64,000 nt of DNA from a virus. The DNA lies in the IMG/VR virus record IMGVR_UViG_3300010382_000019, positions 263 through 64,262 of that record; one strand, written 5' to 3'. The notes below the pieces were generated by a model. The model worked only from the letters and a program-made list of their open reading frames with translations, did not search any database and had not been told where the DNA came from. The position numbers and the translations under genes are program-made. Shown here piece after piece: positions 3 through 62,036 of the stretch; positions within the stretch are counted from its first letter, which is position 1; each line of letters begins with the position of its first letter.

Positions 3-357
3 CTTATTGGCTCTGTCCCGCTTACAGCAACCTTCATTATGTTATGGTTCCCTCCCGTGAATGGAGAATCAATAATTAACTTTACATATCTTACTACTGT
101 CTTAAGTCTCTTTTTTATATTTTTTACTATAGTTGTTGCTCCTTACCTTGCTCTTATAAATGAGATATCCGGGACAAGCAAAGAAAGAATAAGCCTTACT
201 ACAATGCAGGGGTTCACTCAGATAATAGGTGTTATGATTGCTGAGGTAGGTTCAGGTATTATTATTGATAGATTTAGTTTCAGGATAATGGGAATAATAC
301 TTGGGATTACAGCATTTCTTACAATAATACTTACAGGTATCAATATGAAAAAGAGAT
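3..357 (+). pseudogene. 5' part of GPH/MelB-like MFS sugar transporter, interrupted by prophage integration
   Basis: Frame is open from the window edge (LIGSVPLTATFIMLWFPP...PYLALINEISGTSKERISLT). The hydrophobic helix pattern stops after LTIILTGINMKKR, where the integrase 3' end begins. The ORF-track extension to 494 is antisense integrase sequence. Confidence 0.75.
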
Positions 358-375
358 TTAAATACATATTGATAA
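338..375. other. Candidate attL of the prophage
   Basis: Perfect 10-bp inverted repeat TATCAATATG (338-347) / CATATTGATA (366-375), centred on the host-gene/integrase junction. Confidence 0.55.
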
Positions 376-1923
376 TTCCCTCCCGTCCCATATGCACTCT
401 TTTATTATTTCACGTAGATATCTTACCTTTTCGTCATATGTCAATTCATCAAATGAATTTAAATAATGTAAAATCTTTGTATAAACCGTGTTAACATCGT
501 TTATTTTATTATAGTTTTCCTGTTCTTGACGTTCTATTTCTCTTAGTTCATAGTTTAATCCAATAACTTGTTTATCAAGTTTTTCTATTTCAGCAATTAG
601 ATATTTAACTGCTGAAGATTCTGTGTTATCTTGTAATGTTGTAGTTAAATTTTCTATTTTCTTCTTAGTGCTAGAAATCTCCTTATTGATTACATCTTTA
701 CTTTTAATAGGTATGTTAATGTTTGAATCTTTCATATATTTTTTAATAAGGTTTTTATCTAATGATAATTGTTTCAAGGTGCTAATTACTTTTTCGTCCA
801 ATTCATCTGTGCTTACCATTTTCATATCACAAATTTTGAGACCTTTTCGGTAACGATTTAGACAGTAGTAGCTGTTATATACTTTGTTATAAGTTTTATC
901 AACCTTATGTTTCACACGCAAGGAATAACCACATTTGCATTTGGCTATACCTTTTAATATCCCTATTTCATATTTGCGTGTCTTGTCTAGTATATTCTGT
1001 CCGAATCTCGCTTGTACTTTTAGCCACTTATCTGAGGAAATTAGTGGCTTATGTAATCCAACACTTACAATCCAGTTATCAGGTGTGGTTGCTGTGTGCT
1101 TCTTTTTTTTTCCACCTTTGTTACGACCATACACAATAAGACCATGAGTACCGTCAAATTTTTCTCTCTCTGATGCCATTATACAGCCTAAACTTTCAAA
1201 ATAATCATATATTTCATTGGTAGCTGCAACGTAGTGAGGATTTTTTAAAATATTATATAGTTGTGTGCTGAAAAAAAAGTTGCCGTTGAGTGTTCGGATT
1301 CCATTGTTTTTAAAATAAGTTTCTAATTTACTCAAACTATATACTTTTAAAAAAGTATCATAAATCATATTTAAAAATGGAACTTCTCCTTCATTTTCAA
1401 CTAGCATAGTATGGAACTTCCCATTTATTTGTACCTTTTTCCCCTTATACCCAAGTGGTGCTTTGCCTCCAGTCCATTTCCCGCTTTTAGCGAGTTCTAT
1501 CATGCTATCTTTAACACGTTCTGCTATAGTCTCTCTTTCCATCTGTGCAAAAACAGAGCATATATACATCATTGCACGACCTAGAGGTGTAGATGTGTCT
1601 ATTTGTTCTTTTACAGATACAAATTCTACCCTGTTCTCTTGAAGCTTATTAAAGGTTGTTGAAAAATCAAGAACGTTTCTGCTAATACGGTCTATTTTAT
1701 AGCAGATTAAGATATCTATTCTTTTATTTAAAACATCTTTCATCAACTGCTCAAATCCAGGTCGATTTGTATTAGCTCCTGTAAAACCTTCATCCTTATA
1801 TTCAATTATTGTTTCTATTTTGTAATTGCTCTGTGCATATTCTGTGCAAGTTTTTATTTGAGCTTCAATGCTATCAGATTTATCGGAAAAGACTGATTTT
1901 CTTGCATAAACTCCTATAACCAT
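358..1923 (-). CDS. Large serine recombinase (phage integrase)
   Basis: YARKS catalytic motif, DEGFTG, YKIDRISR, recombinase domain, CKCG...YYC zinc ribbon, coiled coil. Confidence 0.95.
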   Translation of the reverse strand: MVIGVYARKSVFSDKSDSIEAQIKTCTEYAQSNYKIETIIEYKDEGFTGANTNRPGFEQLMKDVLNKRIDILICYKIDRISRNVLDFSTTFNKLQENRVEFVSVKEQIDTSTPLGRAMMYICSVFAQMERETIAERVKDSMIELAKSGKWTGGKAPLGYKGKKVQINGKFHTMLVENEGEVPFLNMIYDTFLKVYSLSKLETYFKNNGIRTLNGNFFFSTQLYNILKNPHYVAATNEIYDYFESLGCIMASEREKFDGTHGLIVYGRNKGGKKKKHTATTPDNWIVSVGLHKPLISSDKWLKVQARFGQNILDKTRKYEIGILKGIAKCKCGYSLRVKHKVDKTYNKVYNSYYCLNRYRKGLKICDMKMVSTDELDEKVISTLKQLSLDKNLIKKYMKDSNINIPIKSKDVINKEISSTKKKIENLTTTLQDNTESSAVKYLIAEIEKLDKQVIGLNYELREIERQEQENYNKINDVNTVYTKILHYLNSFDELTYDEKVRYLREIIKECIWDGRELSICI

Positions 1924-6182: not shown

Positions 6183-7013
6183 ATGGCATGGATAAGTGTT
6201 CACGAACAAGTAATTGGAATGAAGCTAAGAGAACTTTCTAAGTGCATTGGCTGCTCTCAAAAGGAAACATTAGGAATACTGGTTTCATTATGGTTATGGG
6301 GCATAAATAACGCTACAAAAGACGGTGAATTGAGAGGTTCGGACAAGAATGATATAAAAGATGCGTTGTCCATTGGACTGTCCGCAGGACTATCCTCAGA
6401 AAAAATAGTGGACTGTCTTATAGAAAAGCACTGGATTGATTATGTAGGTGGAGTATACATATTACACGATTGGGATATATGGCAGGAACAATGGTATAAG
6501 GCATTAGACCGGAGAGCATACGATGCCAACAGAAAGAGGGAGGAAAGAAAGAGAAAAACCAAAAACTGTCCGCAGGACTGTCCACCGGAAAATCCAGTGC
6601 AACCGTCACCGTCACCGTTACCGTCACCTAAACGTAACCGTAAACCGTCACCAGACCGAACAGAAGATATAGATAGTATCTTTAACTTCTATTGTGAGAC
6701 TTTTACTGGCTATTATGAACAACTAACATTAACAGATAAACGCAAAAAACATATAGCGGCAAGATTAAAACGATATGATGTAGATATGATTAAAAAGGCT
6801 ATAAGCAATATAAGACAGAGCAAATGGCATATAGGTGAGGATGAAAAAAACACAAAGTTCTATGCAACTATAGATTTCTTAATGAGATCAGATGAACAAA
6901 TAGAAACATGGATTAACTATAAACCTAAAATATCAGGTAACAAAAACACTAATAAAGCCTTAGAACTCTATAATAAAGCGAAAGCAGAGGAAGACGGTGA
7001 GCCGGTATGGTAA
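6183..7013 (+). CDS. Phage replication initiator
   Basis: N-terminal wHTH (GILVSLWLW...YILHDWD), Pro-rich linker with DNA repeats, C-terminal conserved domain (ATIDFLMR). Confidence 0.8.
   Translation: MAWISVHEQVIGMKLRELSKCIGCSQKETLGILVSLWLWGINNATKDGELRGSDKNDIKDALSIGLSAGLSSEKIVDCLIEKHWIDYVGGVYILHDWDIWQEQWYKALDRRAYDANRKREERKRKTKNCPQDCPPENPVQPSPSPLPSPKRNRKPSPDRTEDIDSIFNFYCETFTGYYEQLTLTDKRKKHIAARLKRYDVDMIKKAISNIRQSKWHIGEDEKNTKFYATIDFLMRSDEQIETWINYKPKISGNKNTNKALELYNKAKAEEDGEPVW
6376..6655. repeat. Iteron-like repeats, probable phage origin
   Basis: ACTGTCCGCAGGACT at 6377 and 6565; tandem CCGTCA/CCGTAA run at about 6603-6651. Confidence 0.55.
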
Positions 7014-7556: not shown

Positions 7557-7775
7557 GTGAAAGGAGAAATAACAGCCATGAATGATATAGAAAATATTAT
7601 TAAGTTATTCAAAAGTGGCGCAACGATATCGGGCTTAGTGGATATGGTATTTAGTCAAATAAAAGAAAGGGAAAGAAGCAAAAAACCAAGTGAGAGAATT
7701 AAAGTTTATAAACAAGACATTAAAAACTTAGTAGAAAAAACCATTTACGAAGATTATATGAAACAAGCTAGGTAA
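7557..7775 (+). CDS. Hypothetical phage protein
   Basis: Operon-packed ORF. Confidence 0.6.
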   Translation: MKGEITAMNDIENIIKLFKSGATISGLVDMVFSQIKERERSKKPSERIKVYKQDIKNLVEKTIYEDYMKQAR

Positions 7776-7848
7776 CATTATGACACATTTTATGATAAAT
7801 ATGAGGGAGATTTAAACAAGTGAAAATATTTAAAGGAAGTGCAGACGA

Positions 7849-7995
7849 ATGATACTTGCAGTTGATCCAGGTTGTATAGATTCAGCGCATGTACTTTTAG
7901 ACCCAAAGGATTTGAAACCTGTTGAGTTTGGGAAAGCGGATATATGGCAAGCTTACGCTGTGGCAGTAACTTACTGTGACAATCATAGGAACTAG
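7849..7995 (+). pseudogene. Internally deleted RuvC-like resolvase remnant (48 aa)
   Basis: MILAVDPGCIDSAHVLLDPKDLKPVEFGK joined directly to DIWQAYAVAVTY. Confidence 0.6.
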
Positions 7996-8028: not shown

Positions 8029-8538
8029 TTTACTATCGTACCGAATAAAGTTAGATATTTTCTACACAATCTTGATGCACTAAAAGAAGAAGCAAACCAG
8101 CTCACGCAGGAGCTTAACGATTATAAGAATATGCAGGTGGAATTCTTTATATTTCCTGCATCCGGCAGCGAGGATATTGGCAGTCAGCACTATAAGCATA
8201 ACAGTAATAGTGTTGTCGAGAACGTAGCCGTCCCAAGGTTAGAGTACATGCAGAGACTGGAAAGTAAGATATTTTACTACAAGTCTATTATATATAGTAT
8301 AGATATAGTAATAAGTAGGCATAAAAACAATAGCGAGTATATGTATATACTAAATAATAGGTATCTTAAAAAAAAGAACGGCAGGCCAATGAGTCATAGG
8401 TCAATAGGCGTTACTTTAGGCTACAGCCTGGAAACAATCAGAAAGAAAGACCAAAAAATTATACATGAAATAAATATAGAGATTATGGAGCGGACAAGCC
8501 CATGGATGACTAATTCAGGACGAAAGGGAGATTTTTAA
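8029..8538 (+). CDS. ArpU/RinA-like late transcription activator
   Basis: C-terminal HTH (MSHRSIGVTLGYSLETIRK). The frame is open about 34 codons upstream of ATG 8131, back to the AGGAGG RBS at 8017-8022. Last rightward gene before the cargo block. Confidence 0.55.
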   Translation, partial: FTIVPNKVRYFLHNLDALKEEANQLTQELNDYKNMQVEFFIFPASGSEDIGSQHYKHNSNSVVENVAVPRLEYMQRLESKIFYYKSIIYSIDIVISRHKNNSEYMYILNNRYLKKKNGRPMSHRSIGVTLGYSLETIRKKDQKIIHEINIEIMERTSPWMTNSGRKGDF

Positions 8539-8583
8539 ACAGAGGGTAATAGTTTTAATGAAAAGAAGGATTAAAAAAAGAGA

Positions 8584-8621
8584 CCTCCTGTACAGGCTCG
8601 GCATGAGAACTGGACAGGAGG
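8584..8621. terminator. Probable bidirectional terminator between convergent operons
   Basis: CCTCCTG/CAGGAGG stem with an A-run on the left and a pyrimidine run on the right. Confidence 0.6.
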
Positions 8622-8640
8622 CTTCTCTCTTATTCTGATA

Positions 8641-9270
8641 CTAGGAATTCCACAACCTTTCTGAGCTTATATCTTTAATGCAGCAGTCATGCATAATCTT
8701 GTTGTAATCCGGATTATCATGCAAGTTATAATTCGATGCCAGTCTTTTTAATTTTTCTGCCAGTATAAGAATACTCTCTTCCGTGTATTCCTTACAACAT
8801 CCTTTAAATATTTTATCACAACAAAAGTATGCATATGTAAACTTATGATCGCAAGAATCCTTATTGCATTCGACTGAAAACGATTTTAAATAATCATAGG
8901 AAAATCCGCGTGAAAAAGTAAGAAATGTAGCTTGCTTTTCAATCTGACCGTTCTTTATACTTTTATCAATCCCAATTCCATTTATAAACTGTACTAAATG
9001 CAATAGTTCATGGGCGGTAGTAGATCTAATTCTCCATTCTGACAATGCCAAAGCTTCTTCCCGAATAACAATTTGCATTACTGGTTCATAATTAGCGAAC
9101 CATCCGTTTTTTCTAAGTAAAAGATAAACCTTATCCTTTATTTCCGGGAATTGTTTTAGAATTGGTTCTAAATATTGTTTGGCATATTCGGTGATTTTTA
9201 TTGCTTTATCACTTTTTATCCTTTTCCCATATAAAGCCCAACCTTCTTGACCTAATTTCTCCTCATTCAT
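8641..9270 (-). CDS. HExxH-motif metalloprotein (peptidase-like)
   Basis: STTAHELLHLVQ...EKQA; Cys-rich C-terminus. Confidence 0.6.
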   Translation of the reverse strand: MNEEKLGQEGWALYGKRIKSDKAIKITEYAKQYLEPILKQFPEIKDKVYLLLRKNGWFANYEPVMQIVIREEALALSEWRIRSTTAHELLHLVQFINGIGIDKSIKNGQIEKQATFLTFSRGFSYDYLKSFSVECNKDSCDHKFTYAYFCCDKIFKGCCKEYTEESILILAEKLKRLASNYNLHDNPDYNKIMHDCCIKDISSERLWNS

Positions 9271-9400
9271 ATCGTTATTACAGTGTCCTTTCTTAATAAA
9301 ACATAATATAATATCCTATATTTGCTATGCTCATGTAAACAGATTTCTTTAATAATACTTTAAGTTAAAACATATGGTACTGAATTACTTGAATGATGGG

Positions 9401-10108
9401 TTAACAGGACGCATATGTAACCAGTTGATTGTAAAACTCATTTCCGAATAAATATCTTAAATGGTATTCCATCGTTTTATATACAGGTATTGAATCAATT
9501 AACGGCTTTTCAACACAATCCATGAAATTTCTCCAACGAACAAACTTGGCAGTCTCTGCGGTAGCCAACGTAATAAATATTTCTTCATTATCCAAAATAA
9601 TAATTTCTAGTGGAGATATACAACAATCAAATGGTTTTACGGAGTAAACTGGTATGTGATTTATTTCTGAAATTCTATGCAATGAACAAAATCTATTTCT
9701 ACCTTCATTGGCTAAAAATATACATTCATCATTAATTTCATTAAGCTTATACCTACATAAAGTCATTTGACCTTGATGCAGCAGGTTAGCCTTTTCCTCT
9801 GAAAGATATTTAACTGCATTATTAATATATAATTCTAATATTTTTTCATTGTACGGCGACACAATGCCACCACCATCGCAACAGGTTCCGGTAAAATTTT
9901 CTGATGCATGAAAAGTGCAATGCTGTGGATCGCAAGACCATTTTCTATTGACAATTGCATTTTTATCCACATTGATATTCCCTATCTTTATTATTTCTAT
10001 TTTCCCTATGTACTCATTTACAAGGTTTGAATCCGGTTTATAGTCTTCAAACCTCTCACCAGTATTTCTATAATATTGTATAAACCCACTCCCCTTCAAT
10101 TGCCTCAA
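9401..10108 (-). CDS. DUF3109/YkgJ-like cysteine-cluster protein
   Basis: CDPQHC...GTCCDGG...CIFL...CSLH...KPFDCCISP. Confidence 0.65.
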   Translation of the reverse strand: MRQLKGSGFIQYYRNTGERFEDYKPDSNLVNEYIGKIEIIKIGNINVDKNAIVNRKWSCDPQHCTFHASENFTGTCCDGGGIVSPYNEKILELYINNAVKYLSEEKANLLHQGQMTLCRYKLNEINDECIFLANEGRNRFCSLHRISEINHIPVYSVKPFDCCISPLEIIILDNEEIFITLATAETAKFVRWRNFMDCVEKPLIDSIPVYKTMEYHLRYLFGNEFYNQLVTYASC

Positions 10109-11571
10109 AGATCACGACTATCTTCCAACTTTACTATATCCTTAAAAGAATAATCACCATCCAAAATGTTATGAGACACGTTAGTTAAATTGTTTTTATA
10201 AACTTTCAAATTTTGACCTTGATACAGCCACATATATAAGTTTTCTTTAGCTGCAATACTTTGTATATCAGAGTAAATTTTCTTTTTTGAAGTGTTGTCT
10301 TTTTCAAATTTTACTTTATGGATCAAAGAGTCAATTTCATAATTTGAAAAACCTGCAACATTTGCAATATCACCATTTTTATGATAAAAGTCATATACAA
10401 AACTATAGGGGTTGTTTGTATCTGGAGCATATGACAAAAATGACAAATCAAAATTGCCTGAATCAAACTCTTTACAAAATTGAGCAAACGGCAGTTTAAT
10501 AATTTCACATTCAATACCAATTGATGCAAGACCTTGTCCTAAAATACCACATGCTATATCTGCATCCTCCATTCCTGATACACTTAGTATTTTCAGTTTG
10601 GGGATGTTGGCTAAACCAATACTGTCAATAATATGTTTGGCTTCTTTTGTACTATAATTAATAAAAGATATATTGGGATTATGCGAATACACTCCTTTGG
10701 GAATAGCTGTATTTATTCTTATTCCCATTCCCATTCTTCCAGATTCCAGAAAATAATCGTAATCAAAGGACATTAATAGCGCAAGTCTAAATTTATTTAT
10801 GTCTAACGGTGTATGTTTGGAGTTTAACACAAACAACACCATATCCAAAGCATCAAACTTTTTAATTCTGATATTTCTATATTCACTGAGTTCTTTTGTT
10901 TTACTTGCCTGAACAGCCATAATATCACCAATAGTCAAAAAGAGCTGCTTTCTTTTTTCGTAATCACTTTCACAAATAATTCTTATATAATGAGTATACG
11001 GCTTAGTGCCCCAATACTGATCAAACCTTATTAATTCAATTTCTTTTTTGTCGCTATTGATTGTGTTTAGCTTAAAGGGACCAGTACCAATGGCACATTT
11101 TAATTGTATATCTGAGTTTCTTAACAACTGGGGGCTGATAATTGAACTCTCCTGAATAGCCAAAAAATAGATTAAATCCGGACAATCGTATTCCAATTCA
11201 ATGCAGAGAAGATATTTATTTATACAGAGTATTTTAGTATCCTTTAATAACCCGCTAAATAATTGCCTGGCTTTATTAGATTTATTTAACATTCGTACCA
11301 AAGACTCTTTTACAGCATAGGAATCACATTCTAATCCATCGTGAAAGCAAATATTCTTTTTTAGCTCAAAGTAATAAAGATTATCTGATTCAACCCACCA
11401 CGTAGCAACTAAAACGGGAACACAGCTATTTCCTATAAAACCGAATAGTTTTTCATAAATGTTATCAATAATTTCCCTGCTGATTGTGTCAGATGCGAAC
11501 ACCGGATCTATTGAACTTGGCATATCAATTTGAAGTCTGTATATAGTTTGCATGTTTTCCGTATTACTCAT
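10105..11571 (-). CDS. Family-5 (peptide/nickel) solute-binding domain protein lacking a signal peptide
   Basis: SIDP, IYEKL, FHDG, IGTGPFKL, YWG motifs. No hydrophobic N-terminus or lipobox. Confidence 0.8.
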   Translation of the reverse strand: MSNTENMQTIYRLQIDMPSSIDPVFASDTISREIIDNIYEKLFGFIGNSCVPVLVATWWVESDNLYYFELKKNICFHDGLECDSYAVKESLVRMLNKSNKARQLFSGLLKDTKILCINKYLLCIELEYDCPDLIYFLAIQESSIISPQLLRNSDIQLKCAIGTGPFKLNTINSDKKEIELIRFDQYWGTKPYTHYIRIICESDYEKRKQLFLTIGDIMAVQASKTKELSEYRNIRIKKFDALDMVLFVLNSKHTPLDINKFRLALLMSFDYDYFLESGRMGMGIRINTAIPKGVYSHNPNISFINYSTKEAKHIIDSIGLANIPKLKILSVSGMEDADIACGILGQGLASIGIECEIIKLPFAQFCKEFDSGNFDLSFLSYAPDTNNPYSFVYDFYHKNGDIANVAGFSNYEIDSLIHKVKFEKDNTSKKKIYSDIQSIAAKENLYMWLYQGQNLKVYKNNLTNVSHNILDGDYSFKDIVKLEDSRDL

Positions 11572-12760
11572 AATGTTTCTCCTGTTGTACTATTATTTTC
11601 TTACTATAATCAATTATCCCAAGACCGCCAAATAATAAGCCTGCAATAACTATATAAATAATTGAGAAGCATATTGGTCCGACTTTAATAGTGAATTTAT
11701 CTATAATGTTACCTAAAAATATATTTCCTAAAACATCACCGATACTCGCGCTCAACGAAATCAGAGCAAATTCAAATCCTTTAGCTTCATCTCTTATGTA
11801 CAATGTTTCTGCCTTTGGAACTGCGATATATGTGCATGTTACAAATATACTGCAAAGTAAAAATATAATCAGGAAGCCAAAGGAGTTGTTAACAATTGTC
11901 ATAAAAATACCTATGAAGGAAGCTAAAAAATAGCTAAAGCAAGCCATCTTTTTTACATCGACCTTATCAGCAATATGCCCTGCAATTATGTATGTTGGGG
12001 AACCTATGAACTCATCCAGCGACATAACAAACCCTAATGATGCCGCAGTGTAACCAAATGTAATGTAAAAATGCATAGGTACTATAACATTCCACATAGG
12101 GCTAGTCACAAATGTTTGCAAAAACATTACCACACAAAACAAATAAATCTTTTTACTCATGCCACTAAACAAATTCTTATCAATGAATTTATTATTACGA
12201 TTCTGTACTGAGGGTAAAAAAAACAGAGTTACTAATGCTGCCGCAAGCAATATTGCTGCTATTATAATAAATGCATATTTACCTTTGCTGAACTGATAAA
12301 GTAATCCGGTTGCTATACCTCCCAAGGAAGTTATGATTGATGATACTCCAAGTATATTTCCAAATCCCTTTCCTCTATCCTCAAATTCTGTTAGTTCTAC
12401 CGTATAAGAAGAATTTATTGATGTAAATACCCCTCGGCATACACCTAAACAACATAAGAGTATAAAATAATATGCTATTGGAGTTACAAAGGCCATTAAA
12501 AAGATTATTATAGCACCCGACACCAACGATATCATAAGGTATCTTTTTTGCCCAACTAGATCAGAATGTCTTCCAGTTATAACCTTTATAATAACCATTC
12601 CAAGAGAAAAGGAAGCCAGTCCCCCACCAATACTACTATAAGATAATCCCTGATCTGCCATTCTTAGCGGTATAATAATCGTAATAGCATTGAAGCTCAT
12701 TAGTAAACAACCTGAAACAATTGCAAAAACCCATAGCTGAACCTTTTTACTACATATCAT
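11564..12760 (-). CDS. MFS transporter (likely exporter)
   Basis: About 12 TM segments; GRHSDLVGQKR motif A; overlaps the next gene. Confidence 0.9.
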   Translation of the reverse strand: MICSKKVQLWVFAIVSGCLLMSFNAITIIIPLRMADQGLSYSSIGGGLASFSLGMVIIKVITGRHSDLVGQKRYLMISLVSGAIIIFLMAFVTPIAYYFILLCCLGVCRGVFTSINSSYTVELTEFEDRGKGFGNILGVSSIITSLGGIATGLLYQFSKGKYAFIIIAAILLAAALVTLFFLPSVQNRNNKFIDKNLFSGMSKKIYLFCVVMFLQTFVTSPMWNVIVPMHFYITFGYTAASLGFVMSLDEFIGSPTYIIAGHIADKVDVKKMACFSYFLASFIGIFMTIVNNSFGFLIIFLLCSIFVTCTYIAVPKAETLYIRDEAKGFEFALISLSASIGDVLGNIFLGNIIDKFTIKVGPICFSIIYIVIAGLLFGGLGIIDYSKKIIVQQEKHYE

Positions 12761-12813
12761 TTGTAATCTCCCAATTATATTAATATATCAAGCCCTTTTT
12801 TACTTGGGTATAA

Positions 12814-14190
12814 CTACCTTAGCAATTTGCCTTCCATTGTATGTAATTTGCTTAGTACAGGATATTTCTCAATCAGCCACATGATTTCAAGGAAAGTCTT
12901 CTTATAATCCGCACATTTTTCACTCCGTGCTCGAATATTATTGTTATTTGTATAATATGCCTGAGCCCTGCAGCCTCCACCGCAGAAAAATCTAAAATCA
13001 CATTTTTCACATATTGGGTTCAGGTTGCTTATATTGACGCTCCTATGTTCTTTAAATGTATTAGAATCTTTCCAAATATCTGCAAATGAACGGTTCCTAA
13101 TATTCTCGGCTTTATATTGTTCAATTTGAAAAGAAGGACAGGGGTAGACATCTCCATTTGCGGATATAGAACACGTATTTATACCTGAACCACAGCAATC
13201 GGTACGGATTGGCAATAAAACGGTCTCAATTAACTTACTAATAGCTGTGTCAATCAGTTTATTGAAAAGCCGCTCATCTACTGTAGCGTATTCTAATATT
13301 TTCTTAGTAACAAGGTATTCTTCGGGAATTTTTAAACCGTTTACCTCAGCATTACCGAAATTATTTAAGAAATTTAAAATTACTCTGTCAGCACCAATTT
13401 CATCTGCAAATTTAAAATATTCAATAATTTCATGTTGATTTCCCCGGTGGATAGTAATAGATAATGTAACCGGTACTCCTTTATCTACACACCATTTAAT
13501 ATTTCTTATAGTTTTATCGTATGTACCCGCACCACGAATATATTCATGTGCCGCTTTATCCACACCATCCAATGATATTGTCGTTGGAATTTTATGTTGT
13601 GCCAAATAATGGACTATTTCTTCAGTAAAGAGTAAACCATTTGTTATAAAATTAGGTTCAATTCCGGGTATATTTATTGCATCAAATATTTCAACAATAT
13701 CTTTCCTTAATAAAGGCTCTCCACCAGTAATGTCAAGCTTTACGCCGTTTTTACCCCCCACTTTTACAATCTCTGCTGCTAATTTTCTCATTTCTTGCGG
13801 ACTTAATTTGTTTTCTACCTGAGTTTTTTCTCCTAAAAAGCAATGTCTGCAATTAATATTGCATCTGGATTCGATATTCAGCCATACACCCTGCAAAGGA
13901 TAAACTTCAGTCTTTTCTTCGTTATTATCAGGTGAATTCTGTACATCACCAACATATAAGATGCCTTCATTAATGAGCATATTAACAAACTCTTGAGTTT
14001 GACTGTCAAGATCTCTTACTTCCTGCAATGACATTCCGTTTACCTTTCTCATAATGTCACTGCTACCTTTTGAAGCAATAAACCAAAAAGGTATTTCTGG
14101 AAAGATAATGATTTCTTTGCTTCCTTCACTATTTTTATAACTACTCATTTTCCCTAATAAATTTATTTTCTCGTTTATTTTGATTTCCAA
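12814..14190 (-). CDS. Radical SAM/SPASM peptide maturase with RRE-like N-terminus
   Basis: CNINCRHC, TGGEPLL, SLDG, SPASM CCGSG...VYPC...CEKC...FCGGGCRA. Likely TTG start at 14190 after the GAGGGGGG RBS (ORF track gives 14205). Confidence 0.92.
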   Translation of the reverse strand: MEIKINEKINLLGKMSSYKNSEGSKEIIIFPEIPFWFIASKGSSDIMRKVNGMSLQEVRDLDSQTQEFVNMLINEGILYVGDVQNSPDNNEEKTEVYPLQGVWLNIESRCNINCRHCFLGEKTQVENKLSPQEMRKLAAEIVKVGGKNGVKLDITGGEPLLRKDIVEIFDAINIPGIEPNFITNGLLFTEEIVHYLAQHKIPTTISLDGVDKAAHEYIRGAGTYDKTIRNIKWCVDKGVPVTLSITIHRGNQHEIIEYFKFADEIGADRVILNFLNNFGNAEVNGLKIPEEYLVTKKILEYATVDERLFNKLIDTAISKLIETVLLPIRTDCCGSGINTCSISANGDVYPCPSFQIEQYKAENIRNRSFADIWKDSNTFKEHRSVNISNLNPICEKCDFRFFCGGGCRAQAYYTNNNNIRARSEKCADYKKTFLEIMWLIEKYPVLSKLHTMEGKLLR

Positions 14191-14218
14191 AAGAACCCCC
14201 CTCAATTCATAGTATTGT

Positions 14219-14248
14219 AAGGGGCAATACGAGTGTGTATTGCCCCTT
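14219..14248 (-). terminator. 12-bp hairpin between precursor gene and radical SAM gene
   Basis: AAGGGGCAATAC-6 nt-GTATTGCCCCTT. No U-tract in the sense direction. Confidence 0.6.
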
Positions 14249-14255
14249 GACCCAT

Positions 14256-14336
14256 TTAGATAGAGTATTTGGTATGTGAAAAATGGTCTCTAAATGAGAT
14301 CGGAGTCTTCCTCTGTGCTACTGCAAATAGTTTCAT
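14256..14336 (-). CDS. Putative RiPP precursor peptide MKLFAVAQRKTPISFRDHFSHTKYSI (26 aa), not in ORF track
   Basis: GAGGAGG RBS; first gene of the radical SAM operon; followed by a hairpin. Confidence 0.75.
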   Translation of the reverse strand: MKLFAVAQRKTPISFRDHFSHTKYSI

Positions 14337-14869
14337 ACCCTCGCCTCCTCTCTTTAGCATGTTTAATCTATTATCATACTAATAGATTTATAATTTGGAT
14401 GTATCACAATATTACTCATTCCACAGAATACTTCAAACAGTGGATCAATATAGCAAATACTTTATTTGCTACATATAATCCAAGTTTAGTTTCTCAACTC
14501 CTCTATAGTTTTGTATATCTTTTACATAAATCTAACTCCTCTGTTATTTTTACTTTTGCTTGGATAATCATATATATTTGTATACTAGGTCATCTGCATC
14601 CCATTTTTGTATATAGTTCTTGCAGGGGTGAAATTAAATTTTCTATTGCTATACAAAAACATATTATTACAAATCAAGTTACATTTTGTATAAATGTTTC
14701 CACTTATTCAAGCATATTACATTATTACACAAGAGTCCAATATTATCGCTAGACAGCATTTGATACATCGTGATAAATTTGGTCAATATATGTATTTATT
14801 TATCATTGTTCTTCATTCAAATAAAGAATAAAACAGATAACCCCCACAAATTAAATAAGAATAAAAAAT

Positions 14870-14958
14870 CCCCCTCACTTCGTAAACCGAAAAAATGAGG
14901 GGGGTAGAGGTTTATTTAAAAAAAAACCTCCTGCATAGTCCTCAGACCGGACAGGAGG
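14870..14958 (-). terminator. Two tandem intrinsic terminators downstream of signal peptide C
   Basis: CCTCCTG/CAGGAGG (14927-14958) and CCCCTCA/TGAGGGG (14870-14902), each followed by a U-run on the minus strand. Confidence 0.65.
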
Positions 14959-14969
14959 CTTCTTCACTA

Positions 14970-15101
14970 CTATGGCATAACCTGTTCCGCAGCATATCTT
15001 ACAATACTAAGTGGATCTTTATCGATCCCAGCAAACACGCTTACCGGCATTGACAGTATAAGGGTCATTGCCAGAAGCAGGCTGATTATTGTCTTTTTCA
15101 A
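14970..15101 (-). CDS. Secreted signalling pro-peptide C (MKKTIISLLLAMTLILSMPVSVFA-GIDKDPLSIVRYAAEQVMP)
   Basis: AAAGGAGG RBS overlapping the receptor stop, TTG start, Sec signal peptide ending VFA. Confidence 0.85.
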   Translation of the reverse strand: MKKTIISLLLAMTLILSMPVSVFAGIDKDPLSIVRYAAEQVMP

Positions 15102-15117
15102 AGAAAAGACCTCCTTT

Positions 15118-16209
15118 CTAATTGGAATTATTTATGTCCTGGATGTACTTACGTATATTTCCCAGGCAGCTTTCCAGTTCCCTCTTGTATTCAAGGTTCT
15201 CCGCCGAAGTATATTTAATAAGCTTTTCCACCACTGCCTCCAGCTTTTTCAGCATTTTCCCGTCTTTCGCAACTGCTTTTGCCAGTGAATCAATGTTTTC
15301 AGTTATATAGCTCTTGTACACGGCATAGTCTTCTATATTGAATAACATCTCCAGGAATTTGTCTAAGGCTTTTTCCGGCTCTCCCAGCAACACTTCAATT
15401 TCCGTATAGGTTGTAAAATAAACAAAAAGCAAAGACGTATCTTTATTGTCCAGATATTCAAACGCCTTGTTTATATGCTCCAGTGCCTTTTTATAGTCGC
15501 CTGCTGCCTTATAAAGCTCCGCCAGATTGTTATATATTTTGCTTTTATCGAAATAATCGTTTTCCCCAAACATACCCAGTGCTTTGTCATAGTACTCCAG
15601 TGCCTTATCGAAATCCGACTGTACCTCATAATTTATTCCTATATTCATCAGAGTGTATCCTATATCAGTTTTTTCCTCAGCGTATGAAAAGGCTTTCTCC
15701 AACATTTCCTGTGCAAGCTCATATTTATTAAAAGGTGATTTGGCAAGCAGCGTGCCGTACCTGTAATAATGGAGAAACAGTATATGCCTGTCCAGGTCGG
15801 GAATATCCGGCAGCAGCTTTTCTACATATTTGTACTCTGCTTCGGCTGATTTATGCTCGTGCTTGTAAAAATATATAAGCCCAAGCTCCGAGCTATAGGC
15901 GGCAAGCAAGTTCTTCCTGCCGTGTACCTTTGCCATGTCTATCGCTATTTGCAGCATTTCCAAAGCAATTTTTATGTTGTTCCTGTAAAAATGCTGCATG
16001 CCGATAACACGGTACATTTCGATTGCCCCTGCCGTCAAGCCTTTTTGGTCACACCTGAGTTTAAGCCGCCACAGTATGTAAATATCATTTTCTCCTGTGT
16101 ATTTCTTTATATTTTTTGACACATGTTCCACTAAAGCCGCTAGCTTCTCACTGTCCGCCTCATTTATTTCCCGCTCTGTCAGTCCGGTCCTGCCAATAGA
16201 TAATTCCAA
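15118..16209 (-). CDS. RRNPP-like TPR peptide receptor 2
   Basis: TPR repeats (TLMNIGINYE..KALEYYDKAL; IYNNLAELY..KALEHINKA). Likely TTG start at 16209 after GAGGTGG (ORF track gives 16266). Confidence 0.85.
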   Translation of the reverse strand: MELSIGRTGLTEREINEADSEKLAALVEHVSKNIKKYTGENDIYILWRLKLRCDQKGLTAGAIEMYRVIGMQHFYRNNIKIALEMLQIAIDMAKVHGRKNLLAAYSSELGLIYFYKHEHKSAEAEYKYVEKLLPDIPDLDRHILFLHYYRYGTLLAKSPFNKYELAQEMLEKAFSYAEEKTDIGYTLMNIGINYEVQSDFDKALEYYDKALGMFGENDYFDKSKIYNNLAELYKAAGDYKKALEHINKAFEYLDNKDTSLLFVYFTTYTEIEVLLGEPEKALDKFLEMLFNIEDYAVYKSYITENIDSLAKAVAKDGKMLKKLEAVVEKLIKYTSAENLEYKRELESCLGNIRKYIQDINNSN

Positions 16210-16474
16210 TAGTTCCACCTCATGTCTCATATGTATTTCGGTGTATATTATACAACATATTTCCATATAAATATATATTATTCGATTGACAAATTGCTAC
16301 ATAAGCTGTATATGCTGTAGCGTACTTACCCATAAATATGTACATTTCAAGAAATTACTGCAAAATACCTTATGAATGACAGTGACATATTCAGCCTGCA
16401 ACAAATATCAGGACTGCGTAAAGCAAAAGTAAAGCCTCCTGCATAGTCATTAGACCGGACAGGAGGCTTTACCA

Positions 16475-16606
16475 CTATGGCATAACCTGTTCTACAGTAT
16501 CTCTTGCAATATTAAGTGGGTTTATATAGTTTCCTGCAAATACGTTTACTGTCATTGACAGTATAAGGGTCATTGCCAGAAGCAGGCTGATTATTGTTTT
16601 CTTCAA
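16475..16606 (-). CDS. Secreted signalling pro-peptide B (MKKTIISLLLAMTLILSMTVNVFA-GNYINPLNIARDTVEQVMP)
   Basis: AAAGGAGG RBS, TTG start, signal peptide; followed by a CCTCCTG/CAGGAGG terminator (about 16434-16467). Confidence 0.85.
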   Translation of the reverse strand: MKKTIISLLLAMTLILSMTVNVFAGNYINPLNIARDTVEQVMP

Positions 16607-16623
16607 AGAAAAGCCCTCCTTTC

Positions 16624-16758
16624 TCACTTTGGTATAACCTGTTCCTCAGCATATTTTGCAATATTATCTGGATCACTATAGTTTCCGGCAAATACGCTTA
16701 CCGGCATTGAGAGTATAAGGGTCATTGCCAGAAGCAGGCTGATAACTGTTTTTTTCAA
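16624..16758 (-). CDS. Secreted signalling pro-peptide A (MKKTVISLLLAMTLILSMPVSVFA-GNYSDPDNIAKYAEEQVIPK)
   Basis: AAAGGAGG RBS, TTG start, signal peptide; directly downstream of receptor 1. Confidence 0.85.
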   Translation of the reverse strand: MKKTVISLLLAMTLILSMPVSVFAGNYSDPDNIAKYAEEQVIPK

Positions 16759-16795
16759 AGAAAAGCCCTCCTTTCCCATTTGATTTATTTTCCTA

Positions 16796-17860
16796 CTATA
16801 TGTACTTACGTATATTCGCCAGACATCTTTTTAATTCCTTGTTGTATTCAGTGTTTTCCTCCGAAGTGTATTTAATAAGCGTATCAACCACTGCTTCCAG
16901 CTTTTTCAGCATTTTTATATTTTCCGCACCTATTGTTGTCAGGGAAGCAATATTTTCAGTAATATAGCTCTTGTATACGGTAATATCTTCTATATGGTAA
17001 AACATCTCCATGAATTTGTCCAAGGCTTTTTCCGGATCTCCCATTAATACCATAATTTCCGTATAGGTTGTAAAATAAATAAAAAGCTTAGTTACATCTT
17101 TGTTGTTCAGGTAATCAAATGCCTTATTTATATGCTTCAGTGCCTTTTTATATTCGCCTGCTGCCCTGTAAAGCTCCGCCAGGTTATTGTATACTACGCT
17201 TTTATTGAAATAATCTCTTTTCTCAAAGGTATCCAGTGCTTTATTATAGTACTCCAGTGCTTTATCGAAATCCGACTGTTCCTCATAATTTATGCCTATA
17301 TTCATCAAGGTTTTTCCTACATAAACTTTTTCTTCAGTATATAAAAGGGCTTTCTCAAATGAATGCTCTGCAAGCTCATATTCATGCAGAATTCTATAAA
17401 GTATACCATACCTGGAATAATGAAGATACAATATATGCCTGCCCAGGTCAGGAATATCCGGCAGCAGCTTTTCTACACGTTTGTACTCTACTTTGGCTAA
17501 TATATGCTCGTGATCGTAAAAATATACAAGCCCAAGCTCCGAGCTGTAGGCGGCTACCAGGTCCTTCCTCCCGATTTCCTCTGCTTTATTTATTGCCAGG
17601 CGCAGCTTGTCCTTGGCAAATATCATATTGTTCCTGTAAAAATAATACATGCCGACAGCACGGCACATTTTGATATTCTCAACCGTAAGCTCTTTATCAT
17701 AGCACCTTTTTTTAAGCAGCCGCAGTATGTCAATGTCTTTTTCTTCGCTGTATTTCTTTATATTTTGCGAGACATATTCCACCATGGCTGTTAACTTCCC
17801 ACTATCCGCCTCATTTATGTCACGTTCTGTAATTCCGTCTTTGTCAATAATTGCTTTCAA
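16796..17860 (-). CDS. RRNPP-like TPR peptide receptor 1 (paralog of receptor 2)
   Basis: Co-linear similarity to the 15118-16209 protein along its length. Likely TTG start at about 17860 (ORF track gives 17968). Confidence 0.85.
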   Translation of the reverse strand: MKAIIDKDGITERDINEADSGKLTAMVEYVSQNIKKYSEEKDIDILRLLKKRCYDKELTVENIKMCRAVGMYYFYRNNMIFAKDKLRLAINKAEEIGRKDLVAAYSSELGLVYFYDHEHILAKVEYKRVEKLLPDIPDLGRHILYLHYSRYGILYRILHEYELAEHSFEKALLYTEEKVYVGKTLMNIGINYEEQSDFDKALEYYNKALDTFEKRDYFNKSVVYNNLAELYRAAGEYKKALKHINKAFDYLNNKDVTKLFIYFTTYTEIMVLMGDPEKALDKFMEMFYHIEDITVYKSYITENIASLTTIGAENIKMLKKLEAVVDTLIKYTSEENTEYNKELKRCLANIRKYI

Positions 17861-18053
17861 TAGTACCAACGCCCCCCTTAGTTGTATTATATTGTATATT
17901 ATACAACATATTGCCATGAGGGTAAATATTTTTAAAAAAATTGTAAAAATATATTGTAAAAATATCAAATTTTATGGACATTATAAGTTAGCAACTATTG
18001 AATCATGTCTAATATATGCAGTTTATGCTTGATAATAAAAAAAGAGGGTAGCT

Positions 18054-55776: not shown

Positions 55777-57420
55777 TTAAACGGCTATATCTCTGGCTTC
55801 TTCTGTAAAGGAACCGGGAATTCCGATGTCCCTATAGCGGATAATAATCTTTTGTTCTGCAGTTCTGGAGTAGCGTTCGCCCCGTTCACCAACTTCAATA
55901 CGTTCAATAAACAGGTGCAGGATTTCGCTGGTTAACTCCGGAATCTCGGTGTAGCGTTTGGCTTTATCAATGAACCGTGAGACATTGGCTATAGATTCCT
56001 GCAGCTTAGTCATCCGCTCTACAGCCTGGGGGATTCGCTCCTTCAGGCTGTTTTGCTCATTGTTATAATCGGCGGACAGCATCCGGAACTGCTCGTTAGT
56101 TATTCGTCCCAGTACATTATCCTCATAAAGACGCTTAAAGAGTGCGGTCAGTTCGGCATCCCTGCGGCGCATGGCATCCAGCTCCCGCTGGAGACGGTCG
56201 ATCTCCCTTTTGGTTTCAGTGCTGTTCCTACGGTTGATGTGCTGCACGAACAGCGATTCCTGCTGCCTTGCAAAATGAGTAACTCGGCGCAGGTCATCCA
56301 GAATAATTTCCGCTAGCTGGATTTCCCTTATGTAGTGAGCGGTGCAGACTTCCTTACCGCGTTTCCTGTAGGTGGAGCACATAAAGTTGTTTTTTATTGC
56401 ATCCATGGTATGTGCCCGGTGGAGTACCATCGTCTCTCCGCAGTCGGCACAGTAGACGAGGCCGGAGAACATGTTTTGTTCCGCCATGTTCGCTCTGCGC
56501 CGTTTATGCTTCCGGATGTCCTGCACAATGCTCCAGGTTTCCTGTGTTACCAGAGGCTCATGTGTGTTTTCAAACCGCAGCTGCTCTGAGGCAGGCCGCT
56601 CAATCCGCTTCTTGTTTTTGTAGGATATCGTGGTGTACTGCAGGCTGATGGTGTGCCCAAGATAGACCTCATTTTCAAGAATGTCTGCAACAGATCGGCT
56701 ACTCCAATTATACGGTCGTGCAGTATCTACACCGGTCAGAAGAACTCCCGTTTTACTGTAATAATAATTTCCGGGCGTGAGAACCTGTTCCTTTTTAAGC
56801 TGCCCTGCTATCTGGCTGGGGCCTTTTCCTCCCGCACAGAGACTGAAAATTCTCTGCACCACAGGTGCGGTGTCCTCATCGGGGATGATTTTCTTTTTCG
56901 GGTTTTTCTCATCCTTTTTATAACCATAAGGTGCTCTTGTCCCTACTCTCTCACCCCGCTCCGCCTGAGCCTTTTTCACTGCGCGTATTTTCCTGCTGGT
57001 ATCCTTGGCATAAAAATCGTTGAACAGGTTCTTAAACGGGGTGAAGTCGTTATCACCGTAGAGGCTGTCCACATTATCATTGATGGCGATGAAACGGATG
57101 CCATAGCTGGGAAACACAAGCTCTGTGTACTGCCCGACCTGCAGATATTCCCGTCCCAGCCGCGACATGTCCTTAACTATAATAGTGGATACCTCACCAT
57201 TTTCCACCAGCTTCATTAATTCATTCCATGCGGGGCGGTTGAAGTTTGTACCGCTGTAGCCATCGTCAGAAAGGAACAAAGTGTTTTCAAACCCGTTGTC
57301 GGCAGCATATTTTTCCAGCATCATCCGCTGGTTCTGGATGCTGTTGGAGTCGCCCTCCCGGTCATCCTCCTGGCTGAGCCTGCCATATAAAATTGTGAAT
57401 TTTTGGTTCGCCTGTTTCAT
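55777..57420 (-). CDS. TnpX/TndX-like large serine recombinase (DUF4368-type C-terminus)
   Basis: YGRLSQED, SDDGYSGT, VKDMSRLGR, CADCG..FMCSTY. ATG 57420 follows AAGGAGG (ORF track gives 57486). Confidence 0.92.
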   Translation of the reverse strand: MKQANQKFTILYGRLSQEDDREGDSNSIQNQRMMLEKYAADNGFENTLFLSDDGYSGTNFNRPAWNELMKLVENGEVSTIIVKDMSRLGREYLQVGQYTELVFPSYGIRFIAINDNVDSLYGDNDFTPFKNLFNDFYAKDTSRKIRAVKKAQAERGERVGTRAPYGYKKDEKNPKKKIIPDEDTAPVVQRIFSLCAGGKGPSQIAGQLKKEQVLTPGNYYYSKTGVLLTGVDTARPYNWSSRSVADILENEVYLGHTISLQYTTISYKNKKRIERPASEQLRFENTHEPLVTQETWSIVQDIRKHKRRRANMAEQNMFSGLVYCADCGETMVLHRAHTMDAIKNNFMCSTYRKRGKEVCTAHYIREIQLAEIILDDLRRVTHFARQQESLFVQHINRRNSTETKREIDRLQRELDAMRRRDAELTALFKRLYEDNVLGRITNEQFRMLSADYNNEQNSLKERIPQAVERMTKLQESIANVSRFIDKAKRYTEIPELTSEILHLFIERIEVGERGERYSRTAEQKIIIRYRDIGIPGSFTEEARDIAV

Positions 57421-57947: not shown

Positions 57948-57968
57948 GAAAATTTCCCCCTATCATCA

Positions 57969-62032: not shown

Positions 62033-62036
62033 TTGA

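Follow-up and report, generated by a model that had tools for sequence, protein, structure and literature searches.

Six genes carried by a temperate phage raise the question of whether such an element can hold a complete pathway for a modified peptide, and of what that peptide would be. The genes lie in provirus record IMGVR_UViG_3300010382_000019 of IMG/VR, of which positions 263 to 64,262 were analysed (64,000 nucleotides, hereafter the window, whose coordinates are used throughout). A sequence-only reading had described them as a radical SAM RiPP biosynthetic cluster on a prophage. The analysis leads to the view that they are probably a self-contained RiPP cassette and, for the phage, accessory cargo (a 'moron'). 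Its product would be a small, enzyme-modified peptide of an uncharacterised family.

The prophage and its cargo site

The carrier is a temperate phage whose host is an uncultured Clostridia-like bacterium. It has integrase, repressor, replication, terminase, portal, capsid and lysis modules, and CheckV puts the completeness of this provirus record at 100%. The same prophage is found in a 107-kb metagenome contig, where a host gene lies on the far side of the integrase. The one metatranscriptome ('RNA') run contains the region, but its contigs and its uniform depth across all 20 kb match those of the DNA run. Within the prophage, phage modules lie on either side of the cassette, which runs opposite to them and ends in a terminator of its own. 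A sister provirus (L149) shares 85-90% identity with the window as far as base 8553, and homology resumes at TPR genes, at about 16797. Modular exchange of cargo has taken place between these points, where the sister encodes instead a methylase/HaeII-type endonuclease fusion (restriction-modification). The complete phage modules and the different cargo of the sister at the same site bear out the prophage-borne location, and the cassette is accessory cargo of the phage.

The finer placement between a late activator and the terminase has to be amended. About 6 kb of further leftward genes, comprising two Rap-Phr-like cassettes and three small ORFs, separate the cluster from the small terminase gene at 20498, and the supposed late activator (8131-8538) has a weak match to the transcriptional-regulator family phrog_36 (E 1e-6).

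Layout of the cassette

The six-gene leftward operon was found as described, each ORF lying on the minus strand where Table 1 places it. From the precursor to the HExxH gene, the genes are separated by gaps of 65 and 53 nt, overlaps of 8 nt (the start of the binding-protein gene over the MFS stop) and 4 nt, and a gap of 130 nt, a spacing that fits a single operon. The closing hairpin belongs to a repeated element (direct-repeat family D6) with three copies, the other two standing 3' of the phr-like genes. In the region upstream of the precursor gene (14337-14925) no operon promoter was located, promoter-like sites being no commoner than in shuffled sequence. Gene callers place in this same region an antisense ORF of 145-152 aa that is probably spurious.

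Table 1. Features of the cassette in window coordinates
Feature	Position	Strand	Basis or remark
Terminator-like hairpin closing the operon	8583..8625	.	alignment with 14905-14975 and 16415-16482
Cassette of six ORFs	8641-14336	minus	all ORFs present
Orphan HExxH protein, 209 aa	8641..9270	minus	alignments
DUF3109/Rv0495c Cys-cluster protein, 235 aa	9401..10108	minus	PF11307, 38.9 bits vs cutoff 33.5 (1e-09)
SBP_bac_5 family-5 solute-binding homologue, 488 aa	10105..11571	minus	Pfam 1.3e-45
MFS_1 transporter, 398 aa	11564..12760	minus	Pfam 3e-42
Maturase, 458 aa	12814..14190	minus	Pfam Radical_SAM (PF04055) 1e-23, SPASM (PF13186) 7.5e-11
Intercistronic 12-bp hairpin, precursor stop to maturase start	14219..14248	minus	fold energy
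Precursor gene, 26 aa (MKLFAVAQRKTPISFRDHFSHTKYSI)	14256..14336	minus	conserved small ORF in front of the maturase
AT-rich region upstream of the precursor	14337..14925	minus	must hold the operon promoter
Shine-Dalgarno GAGAGGAGG of the precursor gene	14344..14352	minus	7 nt upstream; direct reading of the sequence

Twelve loci were compared, this one included, with maturase identities of 37-78% across loci. An MFS gene adjoins the maturase gene in all twelve, and the maturase is accompanied by the family-5 binding protein in 11/12, the DUF3109 protein in 10/12 (in one of the two loci without it, the contig ends first) and the HExxH protein in 6/12.

The precursor gene

The precursor had been held to lie below the reach of normal gene calling, and gene callers indeed passed over it in every locus. 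Its conservation beside homologous maturases had been set as one of two tests of the proposal. An ORF of 26-27 codons and of one pattern precedes the maturase gene in 12/12 loci, i.e. this one and the 11 others. Codon differences are synonymous to non-synonymous in a ratio of 8:1 between L145 and L152, and of 8:6 and 8:7 in the other closest pairs, a pattern that indicates purifying selection. Since every homologous maturase examined is preceded by it and its divergence is biased to synonymous changes, the small ORF is, on these sequence patterns, a real gene and more than a chance occurrence.

Two elements surround this gene. A GGAGG-type site is found at equal distance from the precursor ORF in the 8/8 loci inspected closely. 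The hairpin that follows the precursor stop has a fold energy of -21.1 kcal/mol (z -2.9) and no U-tract on its 3' side, and a stable hairpin of differing sequence occupies the matching position in the same 8/8 loci. It may be an attenuator or an mRNA-stabilising stem.

The encoded peptide consists of a short hydrophobic leader followed by a Cys-free aromatic core, FRD-HFS-HTK-YSI. An aromatic core of period 3 (F15, H/Y/N18, H21, Y24) is recognised in 11/12 precursors, with a further aromatic position at F/Y19 and a literal HTK in four of them. The only invariant core residue is Tyr24, two to three residues from the C-terminus, which is all that the most distant locus (L153) retains of the core. 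Nine of the 12 precursors are Cys-free and none has a cysteine at a conserved position.

The maturase

The maturase probably starts at the TTG at 14190 rather than at 14205. It combines an RRE-like N-terminal domain (about residues 1-80), a radical SAM core and a SPASM domain. The CxxxCxxC motif (C110/C114/C117) is invariant across 19 family members. The SPASM motif reads Cx10C with Gx4C, then Cx2Cx5Cx3C and a final C, and its seven cysteines (C340, C351, C394, C397, C403, C407, C426) are invariant or nearly so in the same 19. The radical SAM and SPASM parts of the earlier assignment are thus confirmed by Pfam, while the RRE part is supported by the predicted fold: no PqqD-family (PF05402) sequence match was obtained in the maturase, even at E 5. 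In the AF2 model (pLDDT 85.5) the N-terminal domain is arranged as beta-beta-beta(-beta)-alpha-alpha-alpha, residues 8-74 forming four strands then three helices at a pLDDT of about 90. Foldseek matched the model over its full length to CteB (464-470 columns, TM 0.66-0.71), SuiB and AlbA (query residues 5-436); with the sulfatase maturase anSME, by contrast, the alignment begins only at about residue 100. This three-domain build of peptide maturases speaks against a grouping with the non-peptide SPASM enzymes and, together with the small ORF in every locus, supports the interpretation as a RiPP cluster.

Assignment to a known family was attempted by profile. No curated NCBIfam cutoff was passed by the maturase, for which the top models were StsB (150.6 bits, cutoff 625) and WgkB (145, cutoff 650). 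NirJ2 and AhbD scored 140-150 bits, under their curated cutoffs, followed by MftC (133.9 vs 265), PqqE (123.6 vs 381), the anSME model TIGR03942 (101 vs 349), AlbA (92 vs 850) and the SCIFF model TIGR03974 (90.8 vs 425). XyeB, FxsB and Grr models are absent from the 25 of 81 NCBIfam matches listed. Among solved structures, a profile search with the maturase family returned CteB first (120 bits) and anSME second (103), with lower scores for PqqE (91) and ChlB (63), and a single-sequence search returned PqqE as best (82 bits). Of the named homologues in the database, the nearest (about 30% identity) carries the annotation SCIFF maturase. A thioether product of the sactipeptide or ranthipeptide type (SCIFF, CteB) was considered and rejected: no curated model was passed and, since the precursor has no conserved cysteine to act as donor, thioether formation is not possible. 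An anaerobic sulfatase maturase was likewise rejected on its score, on the extra N-terminal domain and on the lack of a sulfatase gene in the neighbourhood.

Complex prediction of the maturase with the precursor, taken as a 34-aa ORF form, gave a score of 0.52 (runs 0.49-0.59) against 0.01 for the best control. In calibration the mark was reached by 58/80 solved complexes and 2/110 mismatched pairs, scores of 0.60 or less that reached it comprising 7 of the 80 solved complexes and both passing mismatches. Contacts agreed by at least 84% between runs and the partner pLDDT was at least 60. The prediction lends weak support to the pairing of the two proteins, and the pass may reflect likeness to solved maturase-peptide complexes.

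Transporter and accessory proteins

The MFS_1 protein would be the exporter and might also provide self-protection. The assignment of the next protein to the family-5 binding proteins stands, with one correction: neither a signal peptide nor a lipobox is found in it, so that it is predicted to be cytoplasmic. The 7/7 homologues inspected likewise begin straight at the mature domain. Its NikA, Opp and CntA-type NCBIfam matches are all far under cutoff.

The HExxH protein has no match in Pfam, NCBIfam or PHROG, and its family counts only 26 representatives among 1.84 billion proteins. Residues H87, E88, H91 and E111 and four cysteines are invariant in alignments. In the AF2 model (pLDDT 75.6) the HExxH motif and E111 are on consecutive helices, and the fold matches, although weak (best PDB E 0.16), are all zincin peptidases. 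It is predicted from this model to be a small gluzincin-like metallopeptidase, and the motif and fold matches suggest a leader peptidase. Its gene is missing from half of the loci; an M29 aminopeptidase gene adjoins the cassette in two.

Relation to known systems

A parallel in gene order is found in the streptococcal RaS-RiPP clusters under quorum-sensing control, namely those of streptide (StrA/B/C), tryglysin (WgkA/B) and streptosactin (PMC9389541). These share with the cassette a short precursor followed by a radical SAM-SPASM maturase with an RRE (here RRE-like) domain, a transporter and an adjacent peptide quorum-sensing module, and their StsB and WgkB are the top-scoring NCBIfam models. 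However, the maturase stays far under both family cutoffs, the precursor motif differs (no Trp, no conserved Cys), and the cassette adds the genes for a leaderless family-5 binding protein, the DUF3109 protein and the HExxH protein. It is moreover phage-borne and clostridial, and is paired with a Rap-Phr-like signalling system where the streptococcal clusters have Rgg/SHP. A signalling module next to the cassette is seen in three independent contexts: Rap-Phr-like in this phage, RNPP regulators in L004/L005, and agrBD with a two-component system in L145.

The core itself, with its aromatic-X-X triplets, recalls the triceptides, whose maturases are also radical SAM/SPASM enzymes. HtkB forms a His-C2 to Lys-C-beta ring on the HTK motif of HtkA (PMC11499958), and the cassette core includes a literal H-T-K. 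HtkB is however betaproteobacterial and the likeness is drawn at the level of the motif; the third-position residues of the triplets vary between orthologous loci, and the maturase is no closer to ChlB, the one solved triceptide synthase, than to CteB, anSME or PqqE. Among solved structures CteB comes nearest, both by profile and by fold over the full length, RRE-like domain included, whereas the precursor of the cassette, unlike SCIFF, has no conserved cysteine and the SCIFF model remains far below cutoff.

A proposed pathway and its alternatives

Every biochemical step below, as well as the expression and function of the cassette, is what we infer. The 26-aa precursor would be translated from its strong ribosome-binding site, the hairpin 3' of its stop probably tuning the ratio of precursor to enzyme transcript. 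The RRE-like domain would bind the short hydrophobic leader (MK-L-F-x-x-A...), and the maturase, drawing on SAM, its radical SAM cluster and the two auxiliary clusters of the SPASM domain, would abstract a hydrogen from a side-chain carbon and crosslink the Cys-free core once or more (F15, H/Y/N18, F/Y19, H21, Y24). The invariant Tyr24 would be the most likely participant. The leading guess is a cyclophane-type aromatic-to-C-beta link on the aromatic-X-X triplets, which is plausible but unproven and would lower the mass by 2 Da for each ring. The leader would be removed by the HExxH zincin and elsewhere by the M29 aminopeptidase or a 440-477-aa protein, and the product exported by the MFS protein, with the cytoplasmic binding-protein homologue and the DUF3109 protein as conserved accessory factors. 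Since it points away from the phage genes for replication and structure and is closed by a separate terminator, the cassette is probably expressed in the lysogen, and it may be under the control of the adjacent peptide-signalling cassettes. The product may act as a secreted weapon or signal.

The same genes could be read in the manner of PQQ (PqqA/PqqE/PqqD) and mycofactocin (MftA/MftC), with the peptide as a scaffold that is sacrificed to make a small molecule. The maturase would crosslink or otherwise modify the tyrosine, and peptidases would then excise a small redox cofactor or metal-binding compound, to be handled by the cytoplasmic binding-protein homologue together with the DUF3109 protein and exported by the MFS protein. 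Both systems also join a very short precursor with a key tyrosine near the C-terminus, an RRE-dependent radical SAM/SPASM crosslinker and a peptidase in the cluster. The precursor is as short as PqqA, its core is rich in His and Tyr with a single invariant Tyr, PqqE is the best single-sequence structural match, the best NCBIfam matches of the binding protein, far under cutoff, are nickel/metallophore binders (NikA, CntA), and the M29 aminopeptidase of two loci would suit such a route. We nevertheless consider it unlikely. PqqE and MftC scores lie far under their equivalog cutoffs, partner enzymes of either pathway (PqqB/C, MftD/E/F domains) are absent here and in related loci, a dedicated MFS exporter with quorum-sensing modules beside the cassette is more in keeping with a secreted peptide, and the conserved period-3 core reaches past a single residue pair.

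A RiPP with a phage-centred role, either in anti-phage defence or superinfection exclusion or as a phage-phage or lysogen signal perceived by the neighbouring peptide-sensing cassettes, is quite unlikely. The site is a cargo hotspot, with a restriction-modification gene in the sister provirus, and Rap-Phr-like cassettes lie directly upstream; yet no PADLOC defence model was matched beyond a generic radical SAM core similarity to viperins, the identical cassette is found mostly in non-phage chromosomal contexts, and one copy adjoins a LanFEG-like ABC module and a two-component system, typical of antimicrobial peptide immunity. Very improbable is a radical SAM/SPASM enzyme acting on a protein or non-peptide substrate, in the way of anaerobic sulfatase maturases or of heme and cofactor SPASM enzymes, beside an incidental small ORF. 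That anSME is the second-best structural profile match and that NirJ2 and AhbD models score 140-150 bits would agree with it, but all these scores are under curated cutoffs, no sulfatase or heme genes are nearby, anSME lacks the N-terminal RRE-like domain, and the small ORF is kept with its coding signature in every locus. The self-contained RiPP cassette is therefore retained as the preferred reading.

Movement of the cassette by phage

Sublancin is carried on phage SPbeta. Temperate Bacillus phages are documented to carry whole bacteriocin clusters (summarised in PMC13500778), so that of the claim that a complete pathway is unusual as phage cargo, the cargo part holds and the rarity has to be tempered. 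The cassette resembles these clusters as a whole peptide biosynthetic cluster and putative lysogenic-conversion cargo on a temperate phage; it differs in enzyme class, host group and peptide family, and is known here from its genes. Searches of IMG/VR and of the phage and plasmid records of GenBank yielded no further member. The same cassette also occurs in bacterial chromosomes, and chromosomal non-phage contexts make up the majority of the loci that have it. Since it is thus shared with bacterial chromosomes, the phage moves a ready-made peptide natural-product pathway.

Organization of the operon and its prophage

The six-gene leftward cluster proposed by the sequence-only reading is present in full, with all six ORFs running in one direction on the minus strand. 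The precursor ORF is preceded by the ribosome-binding site GAGAGGAGG, and its stop codon lies 65 nt from the start of the maturase gene, which is most likely the TTG at 14190, in agreement with the 458-aa database protein P0001. According to Pfam, the maturase carries the Radical_SAM and SPASM domains and is followed by an MFS_1 transporter, a family-5 solute-binding protein (SBP_bac_5, hereafter SBP5) and a DUF3109/Rv0495c protein. The MFS and SBP5 genes overlap by 8 nt and the SBP5 and DUF3109 genes by 4 nt; a gap of 130 nt precedes the gene of the HExxH protein, behind which a terminator hairpin is found. Scans for promoter and terminator consensus sequences returned sites no commoner than in shuffled sequence, and Rfam and tRNA scans of the whole window gave no matches.

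IMG/VR records the window as a provirus, with completeness rated at 100%, and a 107-kb metagenome contig holds the same prophage with a host gene beyond the integrase. The cluster had been placed between a late activator and the terminase. The small terminase gene lies at 20498, and the supposed activator amounts to a weak phrog_36 regulator match. No relatives of the small terminase were found in IMG/VR.

Main features of the window (position in nt; empty cells where nothing is recorded)
Feature	Position	Strand	Remarks
Truncated MFS_2 transporter fragment	3-494	+	overlaps integrase end
Large serine integrase	358-1923
Repressor	2386-2787
Replication genes	6183-7013
Regulator	8131-8538		weak phrog_36 match
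Terminator hairpin, copy 1	8583-8625		3' of HExxH gene
Six-gene cassette	8641-14336	-
Hairpin 3' of precursor stop			12 bp, -21.1 kcal/mol, z -2.9
Precursor ORF	14256-14336	-	26 codons, encodes MKLFAVAQRKTPISFRDHFSHTKYSI
Antisense ORF	14294-14752	+	145-152 aa, hydrophobic, probably spurious
Terminator hairpin, copy 2	14926-14965		3' of phr-like gene 14970-15101
Rap-Phr-like region	14970-17968		TPR proteins of 382 and 390 aa
Terminator hairpin, copy 3	16434-16475		3' of phr-like gene 16475-16627
Small terminase	20498
Large terminase	25825
Portal	27907
Capsid	31066
Single 4430-aa ORF	41121-54413		tail/late region
Endolysin	55075
High-GC right end	55777-62342		GC 0.46-0.50 (phage ~0.35)

The prophage appears to have inserted within an MFS_2 gene or beside one, and a truncated MFS_2 fragment overlaps the integrase end in the window; the same arrangement is seen in locus L148. 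The high-GC right end was considered as rRNA and rejected. It encodes a further large serine recombinase, which carries DUF4368, alongside an AAA_25 protein and proteins of the DUF6076, DUF6550 and DUF6809 families, and looks like a separate integrative element that abuts the lysis end of the prophage and was included in the provirus record.

A conserved 26-codon precursor gene

Co-occurrence was counted over 12 loci, the window and eleven further independent loci with a homologous maturase. An ORF of 26 or 27 codons lies directly upstream of the maturase in every one of them, the copy of contig L004 having lost the leader part. The encoded peptides share the consensus M-[KR]-[LIV]-hydrophobic...[KR]-x-[PA]-[IV]-[SDE]-F-x-x-[HYN]-[FY]-[ST]-H-x-x-Y-x-x. 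In the eight loci examined closely, a GGAGG-type ribosome-binding site and a stable hairpin 3' of the precursor stop were always present, the hairpin being unrelated in sequence between loci. The small ORF is a real gene, and codon comparisons carry a coding signature: synonymous and non-synonymous differences number 8 and 1 between loci L145 and L152, 8 and 7 between the window and L001, and 8 and 6 between L150 and L151.

As anticipated from its length, the precursor was never annotated by gene callers at its own size; it is uncalled in ten loci and lies within a 93-aa call in locus L146. In the window, an antisense ORF annotated over the precursor gene and its upstream region masks the real 26-codon gene. 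This antisense call was judged probably spurious because the intergenic region is AT-rich and, in the loci outside phages, the gap before the maturase gene holds no called gene.

An uncharacterized maturase family within a known class

Database searches retrieved about 24 sequence clusters related to the maturase at 37-83% identity, every one unnamed; in a set of 5.8 billion proteins, this marks an uncharacterized peptide family of small size. The CxxxCxxC motif and the full SPASM cysteine pattern are invariant across the family. No curated NCBIfam cutoff was passed by the maturase, the best scores being StsB at 150 bits (cutoff 625) and WgkB at 145 bits (cutoff 650), and PADLOC returned nothing but generic similarity to the viperin core. 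Against the PDB, the family profile scored 120 bits for CteB, 103 for anSME, 91 for PqqE, 87 for SkfB and 63 for both ChlB and SuiB.

The AF2 model (pLDDT 85.5) contains a four-strand, three-helix N-terminal domain at high confidence. In Foldseek, the maturase aligns end to end with the RRE-bearing enzymes CteB, SuiB and AlbA, whereas the alignments to anSME, PqqE and ChlB start no earlier than about residue 95. The N-terminal domain is thus a predicted RRE; since Pfam at E 5 gave no PqqD match when the first 100 residues of four family members were scanned, this assignment is one of predicted fold. Complex prediction of the maturase with the precursor, taken as the 34-aa ORF, scored 0.52 against 0.01 for the best control, a range in which, by calibration, a pass is weak, and similar complexes have already been solved. 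Overall, the RiPP interpretation of the cluster is supported, as an uncharacterized family inside the known class of radical SAM RiPPs.

Possible chemistry of the crosslink

Although the closest solved enzyme, CteB, makes thioethers, such a product was rejected: cysteine is absent from 9 of the 12 precursors and no cysteine position is conserved, which excludes thioether formation. The core instead displays aromatic residues with a period of three (F15, H/Y/N18, H21 and Y24), reading FRD-HFS-HTK-YSI in the window. Radical SAM cyclophane synthases join an aromatic ring to the C-beta of the residue two positions on, and HtkB does so on an HTK motif (PMC11499958) that is shared by the window core. 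A triceptide-type ring on the core can be entertained on these grounds, but we consider it somewhat doubtful. The residues at the third position differ between loci, and L153, the most distant locus, keeps Tyr24 alone of the core; both observations weigh against a simple transfer of the HtkB precedent. Tyr24 always lies two or three residues from the C-terminus. PqqE and RrrB both use tyrosine as ring acceptor (PMC9389541), so that a side-chain-to-Tyr link is equally possible. That the pathway yields some radical crosslink in an exported peptide is, irrespective of the ring type, probable.

Accessory proteins of the cassette

The MFS gene adjoins the maturase in all 12 loci, SBP5 in 11 and DUF3109 in 10, the contig ending first in one of the other two; the HExxH gene is found in half of them (6/12). 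The seven SBP5 proteins inspected all lack both a signal peptide and a lipobox and begin directly at the mature domain, for which reason the homologue is predicted to be cytoplasmic. The 209-aa HExxH protein had no match in Pfam, NCBIfam or PHROGs. Its orphan family is very small, with 26 representatives in a set of 1.84 billion proteins, and keeps H87, E88, H91, E111 and four cysteines invariant. The AF2 model of the protein places HExxH and E111 on helices that follow one another, the arrangement seen in gluzincins; a fold search found no PDB match at E 0.001 or better, and the weak matches were all zincin peptidases.

Three loci without the HExxH gene carry, between SBP5 and DUF3109, an unrelated Pfam-negative protein of 433-477 aa (L005:11975-13408, L150:4399-5700 and L151:5213-6544) that may be an alternative processing enzyme. 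An M29 aminopeptidase is added in two loci. The contigs L004 and L005 have an identical maturase, and L005 is intact. In L004, the precursor has lost its leader (7767-7877) and the 477-aa accessory gene is split into pieces of 195 and 110 aa (12109-13539), from which the cassette is read as decaying. The literature, incompletely covered, contained neither a description of this precursor family nor a pairing of SBP5 and DUF3109 with a radical SAM RiPP, and novelty is therefore not proven.

Cargo exchange and distribution

The sister provirus L149 (IMGVR_UViG_3300027719_000026) is 85-90% identical to the window through the early region up to base 8553. Beyond this base it carries a methylase/endonuclease fusion and two unknown genes, and homology resumes at the TPR genes. 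The fusion (L149:11030-13024) is a 664-aa C5 cytosine methylase/HaeII-type restriction endonuclease, found at the position matching window base 8554 onwards, where the window has the cassette. The site is a cargo hotspot at which the peptide pathway is swapped for a restriction-modification gene, and the RiPP cassette with one Rap-Phr-like unit constitutes exchangeable cargo at this variable position. Three copies of one terminator hairpin of about 40 nt (CCTCCTG...CAGGAGG) bracket the cassette and the first Rap-Phr-like unit; these repeats may be recombination points promoting module exchange.

Elsewhere the cassette is found on ordinary chromosomes, beside a tyrosine integrase or IS elements, or interrupted by an IS21-like element. 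The interruption concerns the chromosomal cassette of L143 (78% maturase identity), where the element (L143:9548-12324), comprising an rve transposase, an AAA_22 helper and a DUF6431 gene, separates the maturase gene from the MFS gene. Among IMG/VR records, 50,697 GenBank phage records and 72,556 plasmids, the window prophage is the only carrier. By megablast, the cluster had no match in GenBank phages. At the protein level, GenBank phages and plasmids yielded nothing closer than distant radical SAM/SPASM matches (≤30% identity), and the IMG/VR scan only short-segment matches (≤33%). Representative genomes contained one truncated remnant (L007), all else being at most 32% identical. The cluster had been called unusual phage cargo: a complete pathway is indeed carried by a phage, although phage carriage of bacteriocin clusters is already known (PMC13500778).

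Signalling neighbours and biological meaning

Three types of peptide-signalling module adjoin the cassette, namely Rap-Phr-like genes in the window, RNPP regulators in L004/L005 and agrBD with a two-component system in L145; upstream of it, loci L001-L003 have a two-component system together with a LanFEG-like ABC module. Their recurrence suggests that the product is secreted and density-controlled, a neighbourhood pattern resembling that of the quorum-controlled streptococcal RaS-RiPPs. In the window, two TPR genes lie directly upstream of the operon. Behind each of them come one or two small ORFs of 43-51 aa whose N-termini resemble signal peptides, so that the genes form Rap-Phr-like cassettes. 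Coverage of this region in the source sample is several-fold higher and there are variant contigs, pointing to several related phages that share these genes. A run labelled RNA is uninformative on expression since it mirrors the DNA run of the same sample, with even coverage over all 20 kb and contigs of the same lengths.

In the most far-reaching reading, the cassette would make a new type of radical crosslink with the invariant Tyr and the conserved His at its centre, in a core of nine to twelve residues that lacks Cys. Maturation or handling of the product would require the cytoplasmic SBP5 homologue and the DUF3109 protein, neither with a known role in RiPP biosynthesis, and the phage, through a Rap-Phr-like density sensing of its own, would control the use of the product as a weapon, signal or metal-binding peptide specific to the lysogen. 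As a whole, this reading is speculative and rather unlikely. The interest of the system lies in its compact Cys-free precursor, its conserved but unexplained partners (the leaderless SBP5, DUF3109 and an orphan zincin) and clear cargo swapping. Its compactness, six genes in 5.7 kb, makes the pathway tractable in the search for a new crosslink and for new accessory functions. It is also a concrete, complete case, from outside Bacillus, of a radical SAM RiPP pathway that a temperate phage carries along.
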